In this document: in pieces, positions 24,661 to 36,414 of the stretch
Layout: every line of letters begins with the position of its first letter
Numbering within the stretch: position 1 is the stretch's first letter
Assembly: GCA_040263275.1 (NCBI GenBank)
Contig: JBDQKM010000002.1
Coordinates: 1 to 48,934, forward strand
From: Acidimicrobiales bacterium
GTDB lineage: Bacteria > Actinomycetota > Acidimicrobiia > Acidimicrobiales > Aldehydirespiratoraceae
Length of the DNA: 48,934 nt
Reading direction: 5' to 3'
Notes under the pieces: model-generated
What the model was told of the DNA's origin: nothing
Databases searched by the model: none
Seen by the model: the letters and a program-made list of their open reading frames with translations, nothing else
Made by a program: the position numbers and the translations under genes

Positions 24661-26447
<1,787 letters not shown>

Positions 26448-26451
<4 letters not shown>

Positions 26452-27914
26452 GCGTGCCCGAACACTTCGACGTCCTGATCGTCGGCGCCGGTATCTCGGG
26501 CGTCGGCGGCGCCTACCACCTCCAGGAGCAGCGCCCGGGCTCGTCGTTCGTCGTGCTCGAGAGCAAGGAGACCTTCGGCGGTACCTGGGAGACCCACAAG
26601 TATCCGGGCATCAGGTCCGACAGCGACCTCTACACCTTCGGCTACCGGTTCAAGCCCTGGACGGGCACGCCGATCGCCACCGCCGATGAGATCATCCGCT
26701 ACATGGGCGAGGTCATCGACGAAAACGATCTCGACCGCCACATCCGCTACGGCCACCTGATCACCTCGGCCCGGTGGAACAGCGACGAGCGGCGGTGGAC
26801 CATCACGGCGACCGGCCCCGACGGCGACTCGGTCGTGTTCACCGCCGGGTTCCTGTGGATGTGTCAGGGCTACTACCGCCACTCCCACGGCTACACCCCC
26901 GAGTGGCCGGGGATGCAACGCTTCGCCGGGCAGATCGTGCACCCGCAGACCTGGCCCGACGATCTCGACTACGCCGGGAAGCGGGTCGTCTGCATCGGCT
27001 CGGGCGCCACCGCAGCCACGCTCGTGCCGGCGATGGCCGACGAGGTCGAGCACATCACGATGCTCCAGCGGTCGCCGACCTTCTTCATCACCGGGCGCAA
27101 CGCCAACGAACTGGCCGACACCCTCCGCGAGCTCGACATCCCGGAGGAGTGGACCCACGAGATCGTGCGGCGCAAGATCCTGAAGGACCAGGGCGAGTTG
27201 ACCAGCCTCGCGCTCGATCACCCCGACATGGTGCGCGGCGAGCTGTTGAAGGCGATCAGCGACATCCTCGGCGACGACTACGACGTCGACACCCACTTCA
27301 ACCCGAGCTACCGGCCCTGGCAGCAACGCATCGCGTTCGTGCCCGACGCCGACCTCTTCCAGGGCATCAAGTCGGGCCAGGCATCGGTGGTCACCGACGA
27401 GATCGAGTCGTTCACCGAGACCGGGATCGCCCTCACCTCCGGTGAGCACCTCGAGGCCGACATCATCATCACGGCCACCGGCTTCGACCTCAACGTCCTG
27501 GGCGACATCGACTTCGCCATCGACGGCGAGCCGCTCGACTTCTCCTCGACCGTCACCTACCTGGGGGCGATGTTCACCGGCGTCCCCAACCTGGCCTGGG
27601 TATTCGGCTACTTCCGCGCCAGCTGGACCCTGCGAGCGGACCTGTTGGCCGACTTCGTGTGCCGCCTGCTCGACGAGATGGACGAGCGCGGCGCCACCCG
27701 AGTCGTGCCCGAGCTCGGAGCCGACGAGGCCGACATGGAGCTGCGCCCGTGGGTCGAAGCCGACAACTTCAACCCCGGCTACCTCACCCGCAACATGCAC
27801 CTCATGCCCAAACAAGGCGACCACCAACCGTGGATCCACACCCAGGACTACTGGGTCGACAAGGACCTGCTGCCGGCCGTCGACCTCGGTGACGGTGCCC
27901 TCCGCTTCGACTGA
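26448..27914 (+). CDS. FAD-containing monooxygenase (EthA-like Baeyer-Villiger type)
   Basis: ATG 26448 overlaps the upstream stop (ATGA). IVGAGISGV, FGGTWETHKYPGIRSDSD, FAGQIVHPQTWP and CIGSGATAAT. Confidence 0.85.
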
Positions 27915-27952
27915 CGCTTCCACCACCCCCGACGGAGCGGTACCGTGACGGC

Positions 27953-28765
27953 ATGACCGATCTCCAGAGCCGTGCCGATCTCGGTGGTTTCGAACCCGAG
28001 TACAACGACGTGAGCTTCCCGTTTCCCGAGCCCCGGGAGACCATCGAGGAGGAGCGGCTCTATCGCAAGCAGCGCCTCGCCGGCGGCTTGCGCATCCTCG
28101 GCCGGCTCCGTCTCGCCGAAGGTGTCGCCGGCCATGTGACGGTCCGCGACCCGGAACACCTCGACCACTTCTGGGTCAACCCGTTCGGGAAGAACTTCAA
28201 GTACATGACGGTGAGCGACCTCATCTGCGTCAACCACAAGGGCGAAGTGGTCATCGGCGACCGGCCCGTGAACACCGCCGCCTTCGCCATTCACTCCGGC
28301 CTCCACGCGGCTCGCGAAGACGTGATCGCCGCGGCCCACTGTCACTCGATGTACGGCCGCACCTTCTCGGCGATGGGCAAGCCGCTCCGCATGCTCACCC
28401 AGGACCACACGATGTTCTACAACGACGTGGCGATGCATGCCGACGGCGGGGGAGCAGTGGTGCTCGACCCGGCCGACGGGGCCCGGATGGCCGAGTCGCT
28501 GGGCGACAAGAAGGCCCTCATCCATCAGAACCACGGGCTCATCACGGTCGGCGGCTCCGTCGACGCTGCGATCTGGTGGTTCGTGGCGCTCGAGCGCTGC
28601 TGCCAGACGCAGCTGGTGGCCGAGGCCGCCGGCGAGCCGATCGACATTGCCGACGAGCTCGCCCAGGCGGGCTACGAGCAGCAGGGGAGCGACCTCGGCG
28701 GCTGGTTCCAGTTCCAGCCCTGGTGGGAAGAGCTGCTCCGGGAAGAACCCGACTTCCTCGACTGA
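27953..28765 (+). CDS. Class II aldolase/adducin family protein
   Basis: GHVTVRDPE..FWVNP..NTAAFAIHSGLHAAREDVIAAAHCHSMYG..LIHQNHGLITVG. Confidence 0.8.
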   Translation: MTDLQSRADLGGFEPEYNDVSFPFPEPRETIEEERLYRKQRLAGGLRILGRLRLAEGVAGHVTVRDPEHLDHFWVNPFGKNFKYMTVSDLICVNHKGEVVIGDRPVNTAAFAIHSGLHAAREDVIAAAHCHSMYGRTFSAMGKPLRMLTQDHTMFYNDVAMHADGGGAVVLDPADGARMAESLGDKKALIHQNHGLITVGGSVDAAIWWFVALERCCQTQLVAEAAGEPIDIADELAQAGYEQQGSDLGGWFQFQPWWEELLREEPDFLD

Positions 28766-28766
28766 C

Positions 28767-29432
28767 GTGACCCTCGACGTCTCGGCGGTCGACGGCGTCG
28801 GGTGGCTCGTCTTCGACCGGCCCGAGGCCGGCAACGCCATCAACGCGCAGATGTTCCGCGACCTGGAGCGCGCGTGGCGTGATCTCGAGGCCGACCCCGA
28901 AGTACGGGTGATCGTCAACACCGGCAACGGCCGGGCCTTCCAGACCGGCCTCGACGTGATCCAGCTCGCCCGCGACAAGGCCGCACTGCGTGAGAGCTCG
29001 CGACAGACCCGTGACTTCGAGCTGCGGATGACCGGTTGGCACTGTGGGGTCACGAAGCCTGTGATCGCTGCCGTGAACGGCACCTGTGCGGGCGGCGGCC
29101 TGCACTTCGTGGCCGATGCCGACATCGTCATCGCGGCCGAGGACGCCACGTTCCTCGACCCGCACGTGAGCGTGGGGCAGGTCTCGGCCTTCGAGACGAT
29201 CGGGTTGCTCAAGAAGGCGCCGATGGAGTCCGTGACACGGATGGCGCTCATGGGCCGGCACGAGCGCATCGATGCGCGACGGGCCCGCGAGTTGGGGATC
29301 GTGAGCGAGGTGGTCCCCGCCGACGAACTGCGGCCTCGCGCCCAGGCGCTCGGCGAATCGATCAGCCACCACGAGGCGGACGCGCTCGCGGCGATGAAGA
29401 CGGCCCTCTGGAAAGTGTTGGAGCGCCCCTAG
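28767..29432 (+). CDS. Enoyl-CoA hydratase/isomerase family protein
   Basis: In-frame GTG at 28767, directly after the aldolase stop. VGWLVFDRPEAGNAIN..VIVNTGNGRAFQTGLDV..AAVNGTCAGGGLHFV. Confidence 0.8.
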   Translation: MTLDVSAVDGVGWLVFDRPEAGNAINAQMFRDLERAWRDLEADPEVRVIVNTGNGRAFQTGLDVIQLARDKAALRESSRQTRDFELRMTGWHCGVTKPVIAAVNGTCAGGGLHFVADADIVIAAEDATFLDPHVSVGQVSAFETIGLLKKAPMESVTRMALMGRHERIDARRARELGIVSEVVPADELRPRAQALGESISHHEADALAAMKTALWKVLERP

Positions 29433-29436
29433 ACCC

Positions 29437-30633
29437 TCAGGTCGGGATGTCCTTCCAAGCCACGTCCTTGTCGACCCGCGGCTCACCGGGAAGCCCGAGC
29501 ACGCGCTCGCCCAGGATGTTGCGCATGATGTCGGAGGTGCCGCCCTCGATCGTGTTGGCCTGACTGCGCAGGAACGACTTGGAGAGGGACTGGGCCCCGC
29601 GGCTCAGGCCTTCCTCGCGGGTGAGCGAGTAGCCGGGCTCGTGCATCATCCCGTCGGCGCCGAGCAGGTCCATGCACGCGATCCAGATCCGCTGGTTCAA
29701 CTCGGCGCTCGCGAGCTTGCCGACCGAGCCCTCGGGACCGGGATTGCCCACTGTTGCGTTGCTGCGGGCCCGCAGCGTCGTCAGGCGACCGACCTCGGCC
29801 TCGATCCAGAGTTGACTCACACGATCGCGCATGATCGCCCGCTCGGCGACCGGGAGTTCCGGGCCCCGCTTGTTCCACAGATCGACCAACGTGCCGATGT
29901 TGCCCGACCCGCGCGGCGCCGTGCTGCCCCCGAGCGCCACGCGCTCGTTCATCAGGGTGGTGGTCGCCACTCGCCAGCCGTCGCCCACGTCGCCGAGCAG
30001 ATCGGAGTGGGGGATGCGCACATCGGTGAAGAAGACCTCGTTGAACTCGGCCTCGCCGGTGATCTGGTAGAGCGGCCGGATCTCGACCCCGGGGGCCTGC
30101 ATGTCGAGGATGAAGTAGGAGAGGCCCTTGTGCTTGGGCTGGTCGGGGTCGGTGCGCACGAGGAGCATGCCGTAGCGCGAGATGTGGGCCACGCTCGTCC
30201 ACACCTTCTGCCCGTTGACGACCCACTCGTCGCCGTCACGGACGGCCCGGCTCGAGAGGCCCGCCACATCGGAGCCGTGGCTCGGCTCCGAGAACATCTG
30301 ACACCACCAGTCCTCGCCGGTGAAGATCCGCTTCAGGTACTTGTCGTGGTGTTCGTCCGACCCGTAGGTCAGCACCGTCGGCAGGCCCATGCCGATCCCG
30401 ATCGTGTTGGTGGCCAGCGGGTGGAAGAACCGTCCGGCGGCCCGAATCGTCTCCTCGACCGCGCCCTGCAGTTTCGGCGACACGCCGAGGCCGCCCTTGC
30501 CCTCGGGGAACTGCACCATCGCCAGGCCGGCATCCCACAGGGCGCTGCGGAACGCCACCTCGTCGGCATCGACCCCGACCTCGTCGATGACCGCCTGTGT
30601 GCGGACCCTGATGTCGTCTTCTGTGAGCGTCAT
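29437..30633 (-). CDS. Acyl-CoA dehydrogenase
   Basis: WWCQMFSEPSHGSDVAGLSSRA..DGDEWVVNGQKVWTS and the C-terminal TIEGGTSDIMRNILGERVLGLP. Confidence 0.9.
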   Translation of the reverse strand: MTLTEDDIRVRTQAVIDEVGVDADEVAFRSALWDAGLAMVQFPEGKGGLGVSPKLQGAVEETIRAAGRFFHPLATNTIGIGMGLPTVLTYGSDEHHDKYLKRIFTGEDWWCQMFSEPSHGSDVAGLSSRAVRDGDEWVVNGQKVWTSVAHISRYGMLLVRTDPDQPKHKGLSYFILDMQAPGVEIRPLYQITGEAEFNEVFFTDVRIPHSDLLGDVGDGWRVATTTLMNERVALGGSTAPRGSGNIGTLVDLWNKRGPELPVAERAIMRDRVSQLWIEAEVGRLTTLRARSNATVGNPGPEGSVGKLASAELNQRIWIACMDLLGADGMMHEPGYSLTREEGLSRGAQSLSKSFLRSQANTIEGGTSDIMRNILGERVLGLPGEPRVDKDVAWKDIPT

Positions 30634-30651
30634 GGCCGCGGACGCTACCGG

Positions 30652-30897
30652 CTACTCCCTGGGGTCGTCGATCTCGACGCGGGCGAGGGCCGGCAGGTCG
30701 GTCTTCATCATGTCGAGCGCGACGGTCTCGAGGAAGGCGCGAGGCATGACGCACTCCGCGCACTCGGCGGTGTCGAGGACCAGCCGCAGGGCGACGCCAT
30801 CACCGCTGGTCGCGCTGACCATGATGTCGCCGCCGTCGGCCGCGACGAGTTCGCGCACCGCCGCGAGCGCGGATTCGGCTTCAGTCATGGTGATCAT
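30652..30897 (-). CDS. Small NifU/Nfu C-terminal-domain-like protein
   Basis: Real part of ORF 30652..31005, from ATG 30897, which overlaps the upstream stop (ATGA). AAVRELVAADGGDIMVSATSGDGVALRLVLDTAECAECVMPRAFLE resembles the Nfu fold with a CxxC pair. Confidence 0.55.
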   Translation of the reverse strand: MITMTEAESALAAVRELVAADGGDIMVSATSGDGVALRLVLDTAECAECVMPRAFLETVALDMMKTDLPALARVEIDDPRE

Positions 30898-31724
30898 CGG
30901 GCGTTCGCTCCTTCGAGGTCGTTCGTGAGTCCTTCGTCGTTCGCCGGCCGACTCCTCGACAGGAACGCACCGGCGTCGGCCAGGATGAACTGGCCGGTGA
31001 TGCAACGAGCCAGGTCGCTGGTGAGGAAGGTGGCGAGTCGGGCGAGCTCGTCGTGCTCGACGCCACGGCGCAGCGGCGTCGACTGCGCGATCTGCTCCAC
31101 CCGTTCGGGGGTGAAGGCCGCGGCGACGGTCTCCGTCATCGTCGTTCCCGGGGCCATGGCGTTGACACGGATGCCGCTCGGGCCGAGTTCGACGGCCATC
31201 GACGTGACGAGATGGTTCACCGCGGCCTTCGCCGCGGCGTAGATCGAGTTGTAGGGCGACGGCCGCGTCGTCTCACCCGACGTGACGAAGAGGATGACGC
31301 CGCCGCCGGCAGCCGCCATGACCTCGGCCTCGGCCCGGCCGCAGAGGGCCGCCAGGGTGAGGTTCTGATCGACGATGTCGCGCCAGTCCTCACCCCGGTA
31401 CCGCACGAAGGGTTTCGGGGACCGACCCGGCGGGATCATCCCGATGTTGTTGACGGCGATGTCGAGGCTGCCGAGACGTTGGACCGTGGTCGCCACCATG
31501 GCATCGACCGCGTCGTCGTCGCGGCAGTCGGCCACCACCGGCACCGCCCGACCGCCTTCGGCTTCGATCTCGGCCACGACCGCCGCGGCGTTCTCGGCCC
31601 GGAGATCGTTGACCGCCACCGCGGCGCCCGCCCGAGCGAGCCATCGTGCGACTTCCCGACCGATACCGGCGCCGGCCCCGGTCACCAGGGCCACGCGACC
31701 GTCATGGTCGATCGTGATGCTCAT
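30894..31724 (-). CDS. SDR family oxidoreductase
   Basis: ATG 31724 with GGGAGGA upstream. VALVTGAGAGIGREVA, NNIG, and YAAAKAAV (YxxxK). Confidence 0.85.
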   Translation of the reverse strand: MSITIDHDGRVALVTGAGAGIGREVARWLARAGAAVAVNDLRAENAAAVVAEIEAEGGRAVPVVADCRDDDAVDAMVATTVQRLGSLDIAVNNIGMIPPGRSPKPFVRYRGEDWRDIVDQNLTLAALCGRAEAEVMAAAGGGVILFVTSGETTRPSPYNSIYAAAKAAVNHLVTSMAVELGPSGIRVNAMAPGTTMTETVAAAFTPERVEQIAQSTPLRRGVEHDELARLATFLTSDLARCITGQFILADAGAFLSRSRPANDEGLTNDLEGANAR

Positions 31725-31725
31725 C

Positions 31726-32247
31726 TCACTGTCCTCCCGTGAGGAGACGCAGGGCCTCCTCGACCGCGCCGTCGGCCCACGCCTCGACGACCGAGGTGTC
31801 GGTGCCACCCAGGGGATGTTCGACCTGCACGATGCGCGCGTCGGGCTGCCCCAGTGAGGCCGCGACCTGGTCGGTCAGGGTCCTGAACTTGGTGGTGGTC
31901 ACCACCACCGTGGGGATCCCGGCGGCTTCGAGTTGTACGGAGTCGTGGACACTCCACGACGTGCAGCTGCCTCAATCGGCCGAGCCGGTCAGGACCAGCT
32001 CGACCTCCTCGCGTAGTCGTGACATCACGTCGTCGGGCGCCGCCAGGGCTGCGTTCTTGGTCTCGACCCGCGTGACGGTCGCCCCGGTCCGCTCGGCCAG
32101 TCGCTCCGCCATCCGGCCGAGCAGCACGCCGGCGTTCGGCTTGGTGTTGTCGAGGATGCCGATTCGTCGGCCGGCCAGGACGGAAGGGCTCGGGGCCAGA
32201 TGGACCGGCTCGGGGCCGATCTCACCCGCCGGGGTGTAGATCCTCAT
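31726..32247 (-). CDS. Candidate selenoprotein with a U-G-S-C motif (in-frame TGA at 31972..31974 read as Sec); 173 aa
   Basis: ORFs 31972..32247 and 31726..31908 are in the same frame, separated by one TGA and 21 sense codons. Read-through gives ..VELVLTGSAD-U-GSCTSWSVHDSVQLEAAGIPTVVVTTT... A SECIS-like hairpin lies 11 nt downstream. AGGAG SD precedes ATG 32247, and the gene is tightly coupled to its neighbours. Confidence 0.7.
31942..31960 (-). promoter_or_regulatory. SECIS-like hairpin downstream of the UGSC TGA
   Basis: The mRNA sense is GUCGUGG-AGUGU-CCACGAC, a perfect 7-bp stem starting 11 nt after the UGA. The apical-loop G-U falls at nt 23-24 counted from the U of UGA. Confidence 0.6.
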
Positions 32248-32271
32248 GCGTTTGCTCCTGTCATTCCGGTC

Positions 32272-33318
32272 TCAGTTCGCCTCGACGGCGACGGTCACGC
32301 TCTTCGTCATGCCCCAACTCGGGATCACGCTGCTGTGCTTGCCGGGGCCACCGACCACCAACACCTTGATGTGGTCGGGGTGGGCCGTCATGGGCATCAG
32401 TTCGTCGTCGGCCAGCGTCTGCTGCCACGGCTCCCACGCCCGCAGGTCGAAGGCGCGACGGAGCTCCCCGGCGGGCAACCGGGCGCGTTGATGCAGGTAG
32501 GACGCAACGTGACGACGCGTCCACCCGGCGGAGGCACACGCCGCAGCATGTTCTGGGCAGAGCGTCACGAAGTACTCGCCCTGGCTGATCGGGGCGTTGT
32601 TCTGTCCGGTCGAGCTCATGGCCGACGCGATCTTGTCGAGGATCGCCTCGGGCGTCGAGGATTCCATGTCGTGCGCATTGTGTGGCGCCTCGCCACAGTG
32701 GACGCTGACCGCCGACGGCGCTTCGACGCCGGCGTCGGCCGCATAGCTGCCCCACGGCGACTCGGCGAGGTTCTCGGCGACGCAATAGGTGTACTTCGCC
32801 GGTCCGCCCTGGGTGGCCACGTCGCCCGGACCGGGCACGGCGCCGGCAATGTGCATCAGGATGAGGCGGAGGGCCCGCCCTGTTGCCGCGTTGGCCCGGT
32901 TGCCGGGCCCGAACGCGCCGATCCCGCCGTTGAAGCCACCCTCCTCGGCCACCCGACCGTGAACGACCAGGAGCGGGGCGACGGGATGGGTCGTGGCGTT
33001 GACCCCACGGAGATTCACCTCGGGCCGGGCCAGTGCCCGCACCGCGGCCACCAGCACCGGCTGATGCGCTGGGGTGCACCCGGCGAGGACGGCGTTGACG
33101 GCGATCATCCGGCGTGTGGCGAGTCCGGATCGCGGCGGCAACACGGCGATCACCTCGTCGGGGTCGTGTTCCCCGGAGCCGAGCATCTCGGCCACTCGCT
33201 CCTCGGTCGGGGGGATCATCGGCAGACCGTCGCCCCACCCGAACGACGCGTAGAGCTCGAGGAGACGGACCGGGTCGTCGTGATCGAGTTCGAGGAAGGT
33301 CGCGCTGTCTGTTGCCAT
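32272..33318 (-). CDS. Conserved hypothetical protein (348 aa), first gene of the UGSC operon
   Basis: Real part of ORF 32272..34044, from ATG 33318 (MATDSATFLELDHDD..). It has normal coding bias, with blocks such as FGWGDGLPMIPPT, AVNAVLAGC, GVNATTHPVAPL and GPGNRANAATGRALRL. I could not assign a family. Confidence 0.6.
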   Translation of the reverse strand: MATDSATFLELDHDDPVRLLELYASFGWGDGLPMIPPTEERVAEMLGSGEHDPDEVIAVLPPRSGLATRRMIAVNAVLAGCTPAHQPVLVAAVRALARPEVNLRGVNATTHPVAPLLVVHGRVAEEGGFNGGIGAFGPGNRANAATGRALRLILMHIAGAVPGPGDVATQGGPAKYTYCVAENLAESPWGSYAADAGVEAPSAVSVHCGEAPHNAHDMESSTPEAILDKIASAMSSTGQNNAPISQGEYFVTLCPEHAAACASAGWTRRHVASYLHQRARLPAGELRRAFDLRAWEPWQQTLADDELMPMTAHPDHIKVLVVGGPGKHSSVIPSWGMTKSVTVAVEAN

Positions 33319-33332
33319 CAGACACCAGTCTG
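33319..33332. promoter_or_regulatory. Palindrome in the 51-nt divergent region between the UGSC operon and a TetR gene (operator candidate)
   Basis: CAGAC-ACCA-GTCTG directly abuts the ATG at 33318. Confidence 0.3.
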
Positions 33333-33369
33333 ATACCGTTCGACAGGAAACGCAAGCGAAGGAGCGTCG

Positions 33370-33936
33370 ATGGCCGCTCGTGCCGGGATCCGACGAGATG
33401 ACGTGATCGCCGAGGCGATACTGATGATCGACGAGGGCACCCGCCCCGCCGACCTGAGTCTCGGGGCCCTCGCCCGGCGACTGGGGATCCGGCCCCAGTC
33501 GCTCTACGCCCACGTCAACGGGACCGAAGGCCTGGGTCGTGCCGTGGCCGTTGCCGGCCTCGGCGCCCTCGCCGCAGCCGTCACCGCCGCCGGCATCGGC
33601 GTCAGCGGCACCGATGCGGTCGCGGCGATCGTGCGGGCCCACCTCGACTTCGCGTCGCGTCGGCCGGGCCTCTACGAGGCTGCGATCCGACCCCCGGGGG
33701 ACGACCCCGAACTCCTCGCAGCCGTCGAGGCCGTGTCGGCGCCGCTCGAGCAGGTCCTCACGGGGATGGGCATGGGTGGCGACGACCGGGTCCACTGGAC
33801 CCGGCTGTTTCTGTCGTCGGTCTACGGCTACGCCGCGTTGGGCAACGCCGGCCGATTCGCCCTGCCGGTGTCGACCGACGACACCGAAGCCGCGCTGATC
33901 GAAATGCTGACGCGCCGGCTGGTGGTCAGCGCTTGA
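33370..33936 (+). CDS. TetR family transcriptional regulator
   Basis: GAAGGAG SD upstream. HTH region RDDVIAEAILMIDEGTRPADLSLGALARRLGIRPQSLYAHVNGTEGL. Confidence 0.8.
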   Translation: MAARAGIRRDDVIAEAILMIDEGTRPADLSLGALARRLGIRPQSLYAHVNGTEGLGRAVAVAGLGALAAAVTAAGIGVSGTDAVAAIVRAHLDFASRRPGLYEAAIRPPGDDPELLAAVEAVSAPLEQVLTGMGMGGDDRVHWTRLFLSSVYGYAALGNAGRFALPVSTDDTEAALIEMLTRRLVVSA

Positions 33937-34528
33937 GCAGACGCCAGGCCGCGGGCAGCAGTGAGCCCGCCAGCAGGGCCTTGAGAAGATCGCCGACCAC
34001 GAACGGCGCAACGCCGTAGGCGATCGCACTTGCCTCGTCGACACCGGCGGTCACCGGGATGCCGAGGTCGTAGGCCAGCCAACCGGCGCCGAGCGTGTAG
34101 ATGATCACGCTGCCGGCGAGGAACGCGGTGATCGAGGTGGAGAGCTGACGGTCCTGGCCGCGCTCGGCCAGCCAGCCGACCGCGTAGGCCGCCACGATGA
34201 ACCCGACGAGATACCCCGCCGTGGATCCGGTGGCGACCTCCCAGCCGCCCTCGCCGTCGGAGTAGAAGGGCAGGCCGATCGCACCCATGGCGACATAGAG
34301 CAGCTGCGACGAGGCACCGAGTTGCGACCCGAGCGTGCCGCCGGCGAGGAGCACTGCGAACGTCTGGCCCGTGATGGGGACGGGCGTGAAGCCGAGCGTG
34401 AAGGACACCTGCGCGGCGCCGGCAGTGAGGAGGGCGAACCCAACCACGGCCACGATGTCGCGGACGACCGATCGAGGGATCGTGTCGATGAGGGTGGTCC
34501 GGGCGGGAATGGCCCCGATTGCAGTCAC
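33926..34528 (-). CDS. bioY: Biotin transporter BioY
   Basis: PITGQTFAVLLAGGTLG..LLYVAMGAIGLPFYSDG..GGWEV..GSTAGYLVGFIVAAYAVGWL is the BioY signature. GGAGG SD precedes the GTG at 34528. Confidence 0.85.
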   Translation of the reverse strand: MTAIGAIPARTTLIDTIPRSVVRDIVAVVGFALLTAGAAQVSFTLGFTPVPITGQTFAVLLAGGTLGSQLGASSQLLYVAMGAIGLPFYSDGEGGWEVATGSTAGYLVGFIVAAYAVGWLAERGQDRQLSTSITAFLAGSVIIYTLGAGWLAYDLGIPVTAGVDEASAIAYGVAPFVVGDLLKALLAGSLLPAAWRLLKR

Positions 34529-34608
34529 TGGTCAGCCTCCGAATGGCGGGCGCGGGATCGAACGGCGCCACCCTAGCCAGGTCGGCCCGAGGTGACGAAG
34601 CCGACGGT

Positions 34609-36414
34609 TCAGTCGAGTTGCAGCCCGGCGAGCCCGCCGGCGCCCCGCCACTCGTCGAGAAGGGCGAAGAACTTCATGTTGCCCTTGCCGTAACTGCCGT
34701 TCTGCGCCGCTCGGGCCGTGGGCTGACCCTCGTTGTTGTAGTAGCCCGGCGTGCAGCTCTCCTGAAACGCCGCGGTGTCGCGGGCGCTCGCGATGATCTC
34801 GGCGACCCACGCGTCCTCGGCCTCCACCGTCGCCTCGACGCGTGTCGACCCCGATGCGTGCATCTCCGCGAGCACGTGGGCGATGTGGCTGCTGACCTCG
34901 TCGAGCATGTGGGGATAGTTCGCGGTGAACCCTCCCTGGGTCTGGCTGACGATGAAGCAGTTGGGAAACCCGTGGCTGAAGATCCCGTGGAGTGTGCGGA
35001 CCCCGTCCTCCCACTTGGCCGACAGCGTGACGCCGTCGACGCCGGTCAGGTCGCATCCCGACCGTCGGGTGTAGCTGGTCCCGACCTCGAAGCCGGTGGC
35101 GAAGATCAGGCAGTCGACCTCGTATTCGGTCCCCGCGACGACCACCCCGCGCTCGGTGATCTCGTCGACGCCCTTGCCGTCGGTGTCGACGAGATGCACG
35201 TTGGGACGGTTGAAGGTGTCGAGGTACTCGTCGTGGAAGCACGGCCGCTTGCAGAACTGGCGGTACCACGGCTTGAGCGCCTCGGCGGTGTCGACATCGC
35301 GTACGACCCGGTCGACCCGCTCGCGGATCTCGTTCATCTTGGCGAAGTCGGCGAGCTCCATGGTGCGGCCGAGGCTCGCGGCGGAGAAGTCGCTCTGGGT
35401 CTGCTTCGCGATCTCGATGAACTTCCCGATGATGCTCGTCCACCCGTCCATCACCAGGTCCCGGTCGGTGAAGCCGCCCGAGACGAGGGTGTTGAAGTTC
35501 TCCATCCGTTCGCGGTGCCAGCCGGGAGACAACGAGGCCACCCATTCCGGGTCGGTGGGGGCATTCTCCCGCACGTCGATCGACGACGGGGTCCGCTGGA
35601 ACACATGCAGCGACTCGGCGGCGGCGCCGACGTGTGGCACACACTGCACCGCAGTGGCGCCTGTGCCGATGATCCCGACCCGCTTGCCGGCGAGTCCGGT
35701 GAGGTTCCCGTCGGGGTCACCGCCCGTGTAGTCGTAGTCCCACCGGCTCGTGTGGAACGAGTGGCCGGCGTAGCGGTCGATTCCCTCGATGCCCGGGAGC
35801 TTCGGTCGGTGGAGCGGCCCGCTCGACATGATCACGAATCGGGCCCGGATGGCATCGCCGCGATTGGTGCGGACCGTCCAACGCCGGGCCGGCTCGTCCC
35901 ATTCGGCCGAGGTCACCTCGGTCTGGAACAGGGCGTTGTCGTAGAGGCCGTAGTGCTCGCCGATCGTGCGGCTGTGGGCGAGGATCTCCTTGGCCTTGGT
36001 GTACTTCTCCGCCGGCATGAAGCCGGTCTCCTCGAGCAGCGGCAGGTAGATGTAGGACTCGATGTCGCACATGGCGCCGGGGTAACGATTCCAGTACCAG
36101 GTACCGCCGAAGTCGCCGCCCTTCTCGATCACCCACACGTCGTCGATGCCGGCCTCGGCGAGTCGGGCTCCCGCCAGGAGGCCACCGAACCCGCCCCCAA
36201 CGACCACCACTTCGACCTCGTCGGCGAGCGGTGCCCGCTGGATCACCTCGTCGAGGTAGGGGTCCTCCACGTAGTAGGCGAAGTCTCCGGCGACCTCCAC
36301 GTACTGCTCGTTGCCGTCGTCGCGGAGCCGCTTGTCTCGCTCGATCCGGTATTTCTCGCGCAGGACGTCGGGATCGAAGCCGAGGTCGTCGGCCGGGAGG
36401 TCGGTCGTCGTCAT
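34609..36414 (-). CDS. Baeyer-Villiger monooxygenase (paralogue of 24661..26451)
   Basis: VGGGFGGL, GGDFGGTWYWNRYPGAMCD, the fingerprint YAGHSFHTSRWD, and IIGTGATAVQ. It is collinear with the 24661 product along its whole length. Confidence 0.9.
   Translation of the reverse strand: MTTTDLPADDLGFDPDVLREKYRIERDKRLRDDGNEQYVEVAGDFAYYVEDPYLDEVIQRAPLADEVEVVVVGGGFGGLLAGARLAEAGIDDVWVIEKGGDFGGTWYWNRYPGAMCDIESYIYLPLLEETGFMPAEKYTKAKEILAHSRTIGEHYGLYDNALFQTEVTSAEWDEPARRWTVRTNRGDAIRARFVIMSSGPLHRPKLPGIEGIDRYAGHSFHTSRWDYDYTGGDPDGNLTGLAGKRVGIIGTGATAVQCVPHVGAAAESLHVFQRTPSSIDVRENAPTDPEWVASLSPGWHRERMENFNTLVSGGFTDRDLVMDGWTSIIGKFIEIAKQTQSDFSAASLGRTMELADFAKMNEIRERVDRVVRDVDTAEALKPWYRQFCKRPCFHDEYLDTFNRPNVHLVDTDGKGVDEITERGVVVAGTEYEVDCLIFATGFEVGTSYTRRSGCDLTGVDGVTLSAKWEDGVRTLHGIFSHGFPNCFIVSQTQGGFTANYPHMLDEVSSHIAHVLAEMHASGSTRVEATVEAEDAWVAEIIASARDTAAFQESCTPGYYNNEGQPTARAAQNGSYGKGNMKFFALLDEWRGAGGLAGLQLD

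Follow-up and report, generated by a model that had tools for sequence, protein, structure and literature searches.

In a 48,934-nt stretch of DNA from an Acidimicrobiales bacterium (contig JBDQKM010000002.1, here called the window), we found that a selenoprotein of the UGSC family and a 348-aa protein encoded directly upstream of it, designated unk348, belong to a strictly conserved protein pair. By analogy with known selenoprotein-dependent enzymes, the two proteins may form a thiol/selenol reductase of two subunits that a thioredoxin-type system recycles, an explanation that we consider slightly better than evenly probable. The original prediction for this locus had placed both genes in a five-gene operon under a divergent TetR regulator, together with genes for a short-chain dehydrogenase/reductase (SDR), an 81-aa Nfu-like CxxC protein and an acyl-CoA dehydrogenase (ACAD), and had suggested a reductase-type pair acting on a coenzyme A (CoA)-linked substrate. 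The obligate pair stands and the evidence points to a reductase type, while the five-gene unit, the CoA-linked substrate and the significance given to a palindrome next to the TetR gene were not upheld.

Two-way linkage and fusion of the UGSC protein and unk348

The linkage between the two genes was followed in both directions. In the forward direction, GTDB species genomes were scanned with an alignment of cysteine-containing (Cys-type) UGSC proteins, resulting in 258 confirmed loci of which 80 were kept, and all 80 carry an unk348 homologue (55-69% identity) directly upstream of the UGSC gene and on the same strand. In the reverse direction, a UGSC gene was found adjacent and on the same strand in 71 of 80 diverse metagenomic unk348 loci (36-70% identity), lying upstream in most of them and downstream in all others. 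Seven of the nine loci lacking an adjacent UGSC gene end at a contig edge, and the remaining two (L091 and L151) look like true absences. The linkage on which the original prediction depended is thus positive both ways. No third gene was found to accompany the pair universally when the neighbourhoods were searched for one. The conserved unit is the pair of unk348 and UGSC, rather than the five genes.

The two proteins also occur as one chain. Among the top 150 unk348 representatives, 40 contain a UGSC domain, in both orders and with either selenocysteine (Sec) or Cys. Approximately 20 of these are full-length Cys-type proteins with an N-terminal UGSC domain, and approximately 18 start right after the Sec codon, indicating Sec-type fusions that were truncated by the gene caller, and two carry a C-terminal UGSC domain and end at the Sec codon. 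That fusions occur in both orders strongly supports a physical partnership between unk348 and UGSC. A fusion of UGSC with a domain named "Unknown_1", which may correspond to unk348, was reported in 2008 from the Global Ocean Sampling data (PMC2398784). One further candidate fusion, P0020 (549 aa, NCBI), was rejected, as it is an unk348 homologue over-extended at its N-terminus. The same artefact is seen in the window, where a 590-aa open reading frame (ORF; 32272-34044, minus strand) corresponds to unk348 over-extended at its upstream end, running antisense across the TetR gene.

Some loci depart from the simple arrangement of one gene each. A second Sec-type UGSC gene lies 1-4 kb from the pair in some loci (L095:9725-10234, L132:2446-2967 and L115:6730-7170), the copy in L115 having a divergent U-G-A-C motif. 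Besides, two proteins without a UGSC domain (P0267, 717 aa, and P0328, 713 aa) appear to contain two or three matched unk348 stretches per chain, which suggests tandem duplication.

The selenocysteine codon and the two protein families

The UGSC gene of the window contains an in-frame TGA at the first position of its motif (31972-31974), and both the reading frame and the match to the family profile run on past it. In the 80 diverse metagenomic unk348 loci, where UGSC partners were located by a six-frame profile search, this position is TGA in 62 of the 70 partner genes and Cys in the other 8. Downstream of the UGA, a putative selenocysteine insertion sequence (SECIS) hairpin with an 8-bp stem is predicted (Table 1). 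Its stem positions are paired in 91.5% of cases in Sec-type genes vs 58.5% in Cys-type genes, at least 7 of the 8 pairs are retained in 50/59 Sec-type vs 11/65 Cys-type genes, and the loop opens with GU in 57 of the 59 Sec-type genes. Stem pair 18:24 covaries, being G-C in 43 genes and C-G in 13, a compensatory exchange. Sec-type genes have a folding-energy z-score of -0.97 against the remainder of the gene, and Cys-type genes one of +0.49 (Mann-Whitney p = 2e-12). Among genes that encode the identical peptide TSWSVHD, the 14 of Sec type have AGU without exception and keep 8/8 pairs, while the 12 of Cys type all have AGC. Taken alone, the 86-nt fold around the UGA of the window is unremarkable (z = -0.82), and the SECIS signal became visible only when Sec-type genes were set against Cys-type genes.

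Gene callers break the UGSC gene into products of 91 aa and 60 aa, as would be expected if the TGA were a true stop, or if the gene were split or a pseudogene, leaving two small ORFs and no selenoprotein. The continuation of frame and profile past the TGA, its recurrence at the same position in independent loci, and the covarying hairpin and codon choice specific to Sec-type genes refute this reading at the sequence level, and we give it practically no probability. On the same evidence, the TGA is identified as a genuine Sec codon, predicted to be accompanied by a SECIS hairpin that is specific to Sec genes.

In public collections, UGSC genes of the Sec type systematically appear as two separate ORFs (~91-99 aa plus 50-78 aa), and Sec-type fusions as N- or C-terminally truncated proteins. 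Just 240 full-length UGSC proteins were recovered from a database of 5.8 billion sequences because gene callers split the Sec genes. These split calls lead to an under-representation of UGSC in protein databases, where the rarer Cys forms dominate. In a soil-derived subgroup (L105-L111, L117, L120, L147 and L156), the motif UGSCTSCC replaces UGSCTSWS, and this Trp-to-Cys change comes with compensatory changes that keep the SECIS stem (GUCGUGC...GCAUGAC).

The window protein is a clear new member of the UGSC family, the "UGSC-containing protein" of Zhang and Gladyshev, scoring above the cut-offs of both family models (NF041046, 142.3 bits against 125; PF24696, 165.1 bits against 25). Together with the U-G-S-C motif and the SECIS-like hairpin, these scores support the selenoprotein identity that the original prediction had given it. 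The family is common in aquatic bacteria. It has no assigned function (PMC1976440, PMC13188914), was listed in a 2026 review among the selenoproteins of largely uncharacterised function (PMC13188914), and has been classed with the thiol-redox selenoproteins, with a thioredoxin-like fold as a guess (PMC2398784, PMC13188914). The fold was deduced from a structural model of a natural Cys-type fusion, P0341 (pLDDT 93.9, pTM 0.92), in which the high pTM indicates that the packing of the domains is also predicted with confidence. In this model, the UGSC domain consists of five beta strands alternating with five helices, and the CGSC motif is placed at the start of a helix directly after a strand. 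The best PDB matches of the domain are lumazine synthase (TM-score 0.58), azoreductase, flavodoxin, the phosphotransferase system protein PTS IIB and RpiB. The thioredoxin fold was therefore not borne out by the model, which is flavodoxin-like. A search of the UGSC profile against PDB sequences gave no match.

A different relationship emerged when 14 UGSC family members were scanned singly against the profiles of selenoprotein B (TIGR01917, TIGR01918 and TIGR04483). GrdB (TIGR01917) was matched by 11 of the 14 (best E = 8e-6), TIGR01918 by 9 (best E = 5e-6), GrdF by 11, GrdH by 10 and PrdB by 5. The window protein itself reached 14.4 bits against GrdB (cut-off 602) and 11.6 bits against PrdB (cut-off 300). 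Its residues 74-118, which include the Sec, align to positions 130-174 of the PrdB profile, and a Sec-on-Sec register is inferred from these coordinates, given that the Sec of PrdB is residue 151 (PMC11229817) and stands in a UxxC motif (PMC1088965, PMC2398784). These consistent matches show UGSC to be remotely homologous to the part of selenoprotein B (GrdB/PrdB) that carries the Sec.

The large partner belongs to a family of considerable size. Clustered at 50% identity, its homologues in an exhaustive search number 4869 representatives at E<=1e-3, and 990 at the stricter E<=1e-30. That unk348 cannot be placed, as noted from the start, was confirmed: it has no match in Pfam (even at E<=10) or NCBIfam, nor in a profile search against PDB sequences, and single scans of 52 diverse family members (unk348 and 51 others) gave only scattered single-member matches to unrelated families at E<=1. 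The AlphaFold2 model of unk348 has a pLDDT of 94.2 and a pTM of 0.93, and a Foldseek search with it found no PDB match at E<=1e-3, with TM-scores of ~0.2. The commonest weak matches (13 of the top 17) are cyclic amide hydrolases of the "Toblerone" fold, such as AtzD and barbiturase, the best of them at E = 2.5e-3 and a probability of ~0.5. With TM-scores of 0.17-0.22, an rmsd of 11-14 angstroms and no sequence signal, they show no real global structural similarity to unk348.

The blocks of unk348 that had looked conserved in the single sequence are genuine family signatures. In ~357 homologues, conservation of 90-100% is found for D30-G-L-P, N75-A-V-x-A-G-C81, T109-T110 and N143...G147-R148-A149. 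Two cysteines stand out, C81 (96%) and C179 (92%), and further conserved residues include D30, N75, N143, R148, D166, K175, E182, W189, H257 and S329. This pattern suits an active site. A pyruvoyl-type self-processing at C81 seems unlikely, as a turn connecting two helices holds this residue, and ~4% of the members have Ala or Leu in its place.

A putative two-subunit reductase and alternative readings

The D-proline reductase PrdA/PrdB and the GrdB/GrdE protein B modules of glycine, sarcosine and betaine reductases resemble the pair described here in that a small UxxC selenoprotein and a larger subunit, which binds the substrate in Prd and Grd, are encoded by adjacent genes. The Grd enzymes draw on the thioredoxin system. 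D-proline reductase holds its substrate on PrdA; the alpha-carbon is attacked by the selenolate of PrdB, and regeneration of the oxidised centre falls to PrdC, a distinct electron-transfer protein (PMC11229817). The pair differs from these systems in several respects. Its larger partner is not a PrdA/GrdE pyruvoyl proprotein (0/52 members match) and has a different predicted fold, which places the pair outside the Grd/Prd family. Besides, UGSC is shorter than selenoprotein B (173 aa vs 238 to 435 aa), the pair occurs mainly in aerobic Actinomycetota and Myxococcota rather than in Stickland fermenters, and the grdA, grdCD and prdC-H genes are absent from the pair system.

Two further fusions may connect the pair with electron supply. 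P0247 joins unk348 and a near-equivalog thioredoxin reductase in one chain (TIGR01292 with 331 bits, positions 2-300/300, CAVCD motif), and a Sec-type UGSC gene lies just upstream. In P0236, a NifU-like CxxC domain is fused to the C-terminus of UGSC. Thioredoxin-reductase fusion systems are known from AhpF with AhpC and from NTRC, where a low-Mr thioredoxin reductase is fused to, or adjoins, the redox protein that it recycles. P0247 is built likewise, although its fusion partner, unlike in AhpF and NTRC, is an unclassified large subunit and the arrangement is seen in one lineage only.

Considering the UxxC selenoprotein, its obligate larger partner, and the fusions to thioredoxin reductase and to a NifU-like domain, we propose an analogous two-subunit reductase. 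In this scheme, unk348 would be the large substrate-binding or catalytic subunit, contributing C81, C179 and the near-invariant polar residues. By analogy with Grd and Prd, the selenolate of UGSC would attack what unk348 holds, either the substrate or an oxidised cysteine. The adduct would then be resolved by Cys95 into a selenenylsulfide, so that the U92/C95 centre cycles between the selenol/thiol and selenenylsulfide states, and a thioredoxin-type chain (NADPH, thioredoxin reductase and a dithiol carrier) would re-reduce it. In the clade of the window, one of marine Acidimicrobiia, the SDR probably works at an alcohol or ketone function on the substrate of the pair, and the NifU-like CxxC protein is a candidate dithiol shuttle. 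We infer the reductase chemistry itself, which way the electrons flow, and what the SDR and the NifU-like protein do. Several observations weigh against the proposal: the NifU-like neighbour would suit an Fe-S explanation too, unk348 has no similarity to the pyruvoyl subunits that partner selenoprotein B, UGSC matches GrdB and PrdB at scores far under the family cut-offs, the fusion with thioredoxin reductase is known from one representative cluster on two contigs, and the gene neighbourhoods beyond the pair are very heterogeneous.

The original prediction took all five genes as one pathway operon, in which the pair would reduce a CoA-linked substrate together with the ACAD and the SDR. The tight gene spacing (24, 1, -4 and 18 nt along the minus strand, the -4 being an ATGA overlap) agrees with this, and no terminator-like sites occur on the minus strand inside the cluster, those found being on the opposite strand; co-transcription of the cluster is plausible from its sequence. 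Only four of the five genes, with the TetR gene, keep together in relatives. The ACAD orthologue (88-89% identity) remains nearby in L165 and L167, where it is one or two genes away from the cassette with other genes inserted in between, and is missing in L169 and L171. Across the wider collections, 23 of 74 genome loci have an ACAD gene within 10 kb of the pair and none of 25 metagenome loci does, a frequency not clearly above chance for Actinobacteria rich in lipid catabolism. Two distant lineages, L083 and L173, do have ACAD and CoA ligase genes that diverge from the pair, and L173 also holds MaoC, SDR, thiolase and DUF35 genes. Other contexts hold cytochrome P450s, amidohydrolases, an alcohol dehydrogenase or a methyltransferase, and some hold no CoA enzymes, such as an ABC transporter with PGA_cap and MmgE/PrpD genes, or, in L175, a ferredoxin gene with an MR_MLE enolase-superfamily gene. 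A CoA-linked substrate thus finds no clear support, and we regard the pathway operon as unlikely.

The four conserved Cys/Sec positions across the pair (U/C92, C95, C81 and C179) could instead ligate an Fe-S or metal centre at the subunit interface, delivered by the NifU-like protein, in which case the pair would serve in electron transfer, or else be a lyase or isomerase with non-redox chemistry. The linked or fused NifU-like gene, the ferredoxin gene adjoining the pair in L175 and a weak Foldseek match of unk348 to the Fe-S-dependent class I fumarate hydratase (TM-score 0.24) are in line with such a centre. However, fold matches at a TM-score of ~0.2 are at noise level, C81 and C179 are substituted in 4-8% of the members, and a NifU-like gene accompanies a minority of the loci (23/80 and 4/80, see below), while a UxxC motif at a helix N-terminus is typical of thiol/selenol redox proteins and the thioredoxin reductase fusion points to dithiol exchange. 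We judge the metal centre to be rather improbable, somewhat more so than the CoA pathway. A generic antioxidant or disulfide oxidoreductase, for which unk348 would be a mere target or scaffold, would accord with the UxxC motif, with the thiol-redox class and the thioredoxin-like guess of the literature (PMC2398784, PMC13188914), and with the variable gene contexts. The modelled flavodoxin-like fold of UGSC disagrees with it, and a protein that is paired strictly 1:1 with a large, highly conserved partner carrying many invariant polar residues, and is often fused to it, speaks for a dedicated enzyme, leaving this last possibility the least credible of the three.

Locus layout, clade-specific neighbours and wider implications

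The genes, gaps, in-frame TGA and sequence blocks described earlier for this locus were all found in place. The features are collected in Table 1. The window has a GC content of ~68%, its closest relatives are Acidimicrobiales metagenome-assembled genomes, a JGI metagenome contig matches it, and searches over its whole length found no tRNA genes and no Rfam matches.

Table 1. Features of the unk348/UGSC locus, with positions counted from the first nucleotide of the window
Feature	Coordinates	Strand	Basis
unk348 (348 aa), putative large subunit	32272..33318	-	ORF and translation
UGSC-family selenoprotein (173 aa; predicted Sec92, Cys95), putative small flavodoxin-like redox subunit	31726..32247	-	NF041046, PF24696
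In-frame UGA, predicted to be read as Sec, motif SAD-U-GSC-TSW	31972..31974	-	Homologous codon is TGA in 62/70 partner genes
SECIS-like hairpin GUCGUGGA-GUG-UCCACGAC, beginning 11 nt past (3' of) the UGA	31942..31960	-	Comparison of Sec-type with Cys-type genes
Classical SDR, clade-specific accessory	30894..31724	-	PF13561 (adh_short_C2) and PF00106
Stand-alone NifU/Nfu-like CxxC protein (81 aa), clade-specific accessory	30652..30897	-	PF01106, just below the gathering score
Acyl-CoA dehydrogenase (ACAD), same direction as the cassette	29437..30633	-	All three ACAD domains match
Divergent TetR-type regulator	33370..33936	+	TetR_C_33, PF13305, 55.7 bits
Divergent control region (51 nt) with TTGCGT, GTATCAGACTG and a 5+4+5 palindrome	33319..33369	.	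Four-lineage alignment

The SDR, the NifU-like protein and the TetR regulator are specific to the clade of the window. An orthologue of the SDR (49-66% identity, far above generic SDR similarity) follows UGSC immediately in ~33 of the 80 genome loci and is divergent upstream in ~8, which makes about half of the loci of the clade, and it occurs in only 7/80 diverse metagenomic loci, with 65-88% identity in close relatives. The 81-aa protein matches PF01106 (NifU) with 25.3 bits, against a gathering score of 27, over profile positions 3-67/67 and carries a CAEC motif; many of its close homologues have a precomputed PF01106 match. Based on a hidden Markov model search, a NifU-like gene lies within 3.5 kb of the pair in 23/80 genome loci and 4/80 diverse loci, and its position varies, being before unk348, after UGSC or after the SDR. 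The regulator exceeds the gathering score of TetR_C_33 (26.8) and its N-terminus appears helix-turn-helix-like by eye, and no TetR_N match was obtained at E<0.01. In four loci whose unk348 is 62-83% identical to that of the window (L165, L167, L169 and L171), TetR, unk348, UGSC, SDR and the NifU-like gene are kept together, and the TetR orthologues adjoining the cassette are 46-71% identical.

The ACAD gene belongs to an adjacent block with genes for an enoyl-CoA hydratase, a class II aldolase and a Baeyer-Villiger monooxygenase. This block, at 26409-30633 of the window, where the monooxygenase is of the Baeyer-Villiger or flavin-containing (FMO) type, matches L165:11257-15056 and L167:10672-15068. 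In these two loci, the block is set apart from the cassette by an epimerase/DUF1731 gene, to which L165 adds a DUF402 gene. On the TetR side (33926-36414 and beyond, following the gene calls of L081), there is a BioY-family gene at 34 kb and a gene for a 601-aa Baeyer-Villiger-type flavin monooxygenase, followed by Amidohydro_2, SnoaL-like, Amidohydro_3, flavin mononucleotide (FMN) reductase and DUF222 genes. This island looks like oxygenase-rich catabolism.

In the region between the divergent TetR and unk348 genes, an alignment of four lineages has an invariant GTATCAGACTG and, upstream of it, a conserved TTGCGT, and it contains no Shine-Dalgarno sequence before the ATG of unk348. Judged by eye, this sequence pattern suggests that TTGCGT and GTATCAGACTG may form the promoter of a leaderless or near-leaderless unk348 mRNA. 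A sigma-70 promoter scan of the cluster found nothing. The palindrome CAGAC-n4-GTCTG (33319-33332), which abuts the ATG of unk348 and had been noted as a possible TetR-binding site, is indeed present. A perfect 5+5 inverted repeat with a spacer of 0-8 nt, however, occurs in 45% of the 51-nt windows of this sequence, and the right arm is retained in two of the four lineages (the window and L165). At this background and with half of the lineages conserving it, the palindrome is no evidence for an operator.

We tentatively suggest, with a confidence somewhat short of even, that the pair represents an unrecognised and widespread class of two-subunit selenoenzymes, in which a catalytic subunit of new fold and an offshoot of selenoprotein B would carry out reductive bond cleavage or another selenol-dependent reaction, mostly in aerobic aquatic and soil bacteria and with no characterised counterpart. 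In the papers searched and in the Pfam and NCBIfam models, we found no prior report of the near-universal two-way linkage and frequent fusion of UGSC to a large family that lacks both a family model and structural relatives, of its homology to selenoprotein B and flavodoxin-like fold, of the thioredoxin reductase fusion, or of a SECIS defined by contrasting Sec with Cys genes.

If this suggestion is true, the selenoenzyme class would span thousands of sequence clusters. Natural Cys-type pairs exist in cultured Streptomycetaceae (Yinghuangia and Streptodolium), among them those of Yinghuangia aomiensis JCM 17986 (L039) and of the Streptomycetaceae bacterium NBC_01309 (L062), so that the enzyme could be expressible without the Sec machinery. 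Overall, as one half of a probable obligate two-protein enzyme whose large partner family lacks Pfam coverage, the UGSC protein has become experimentally approachable in its function.

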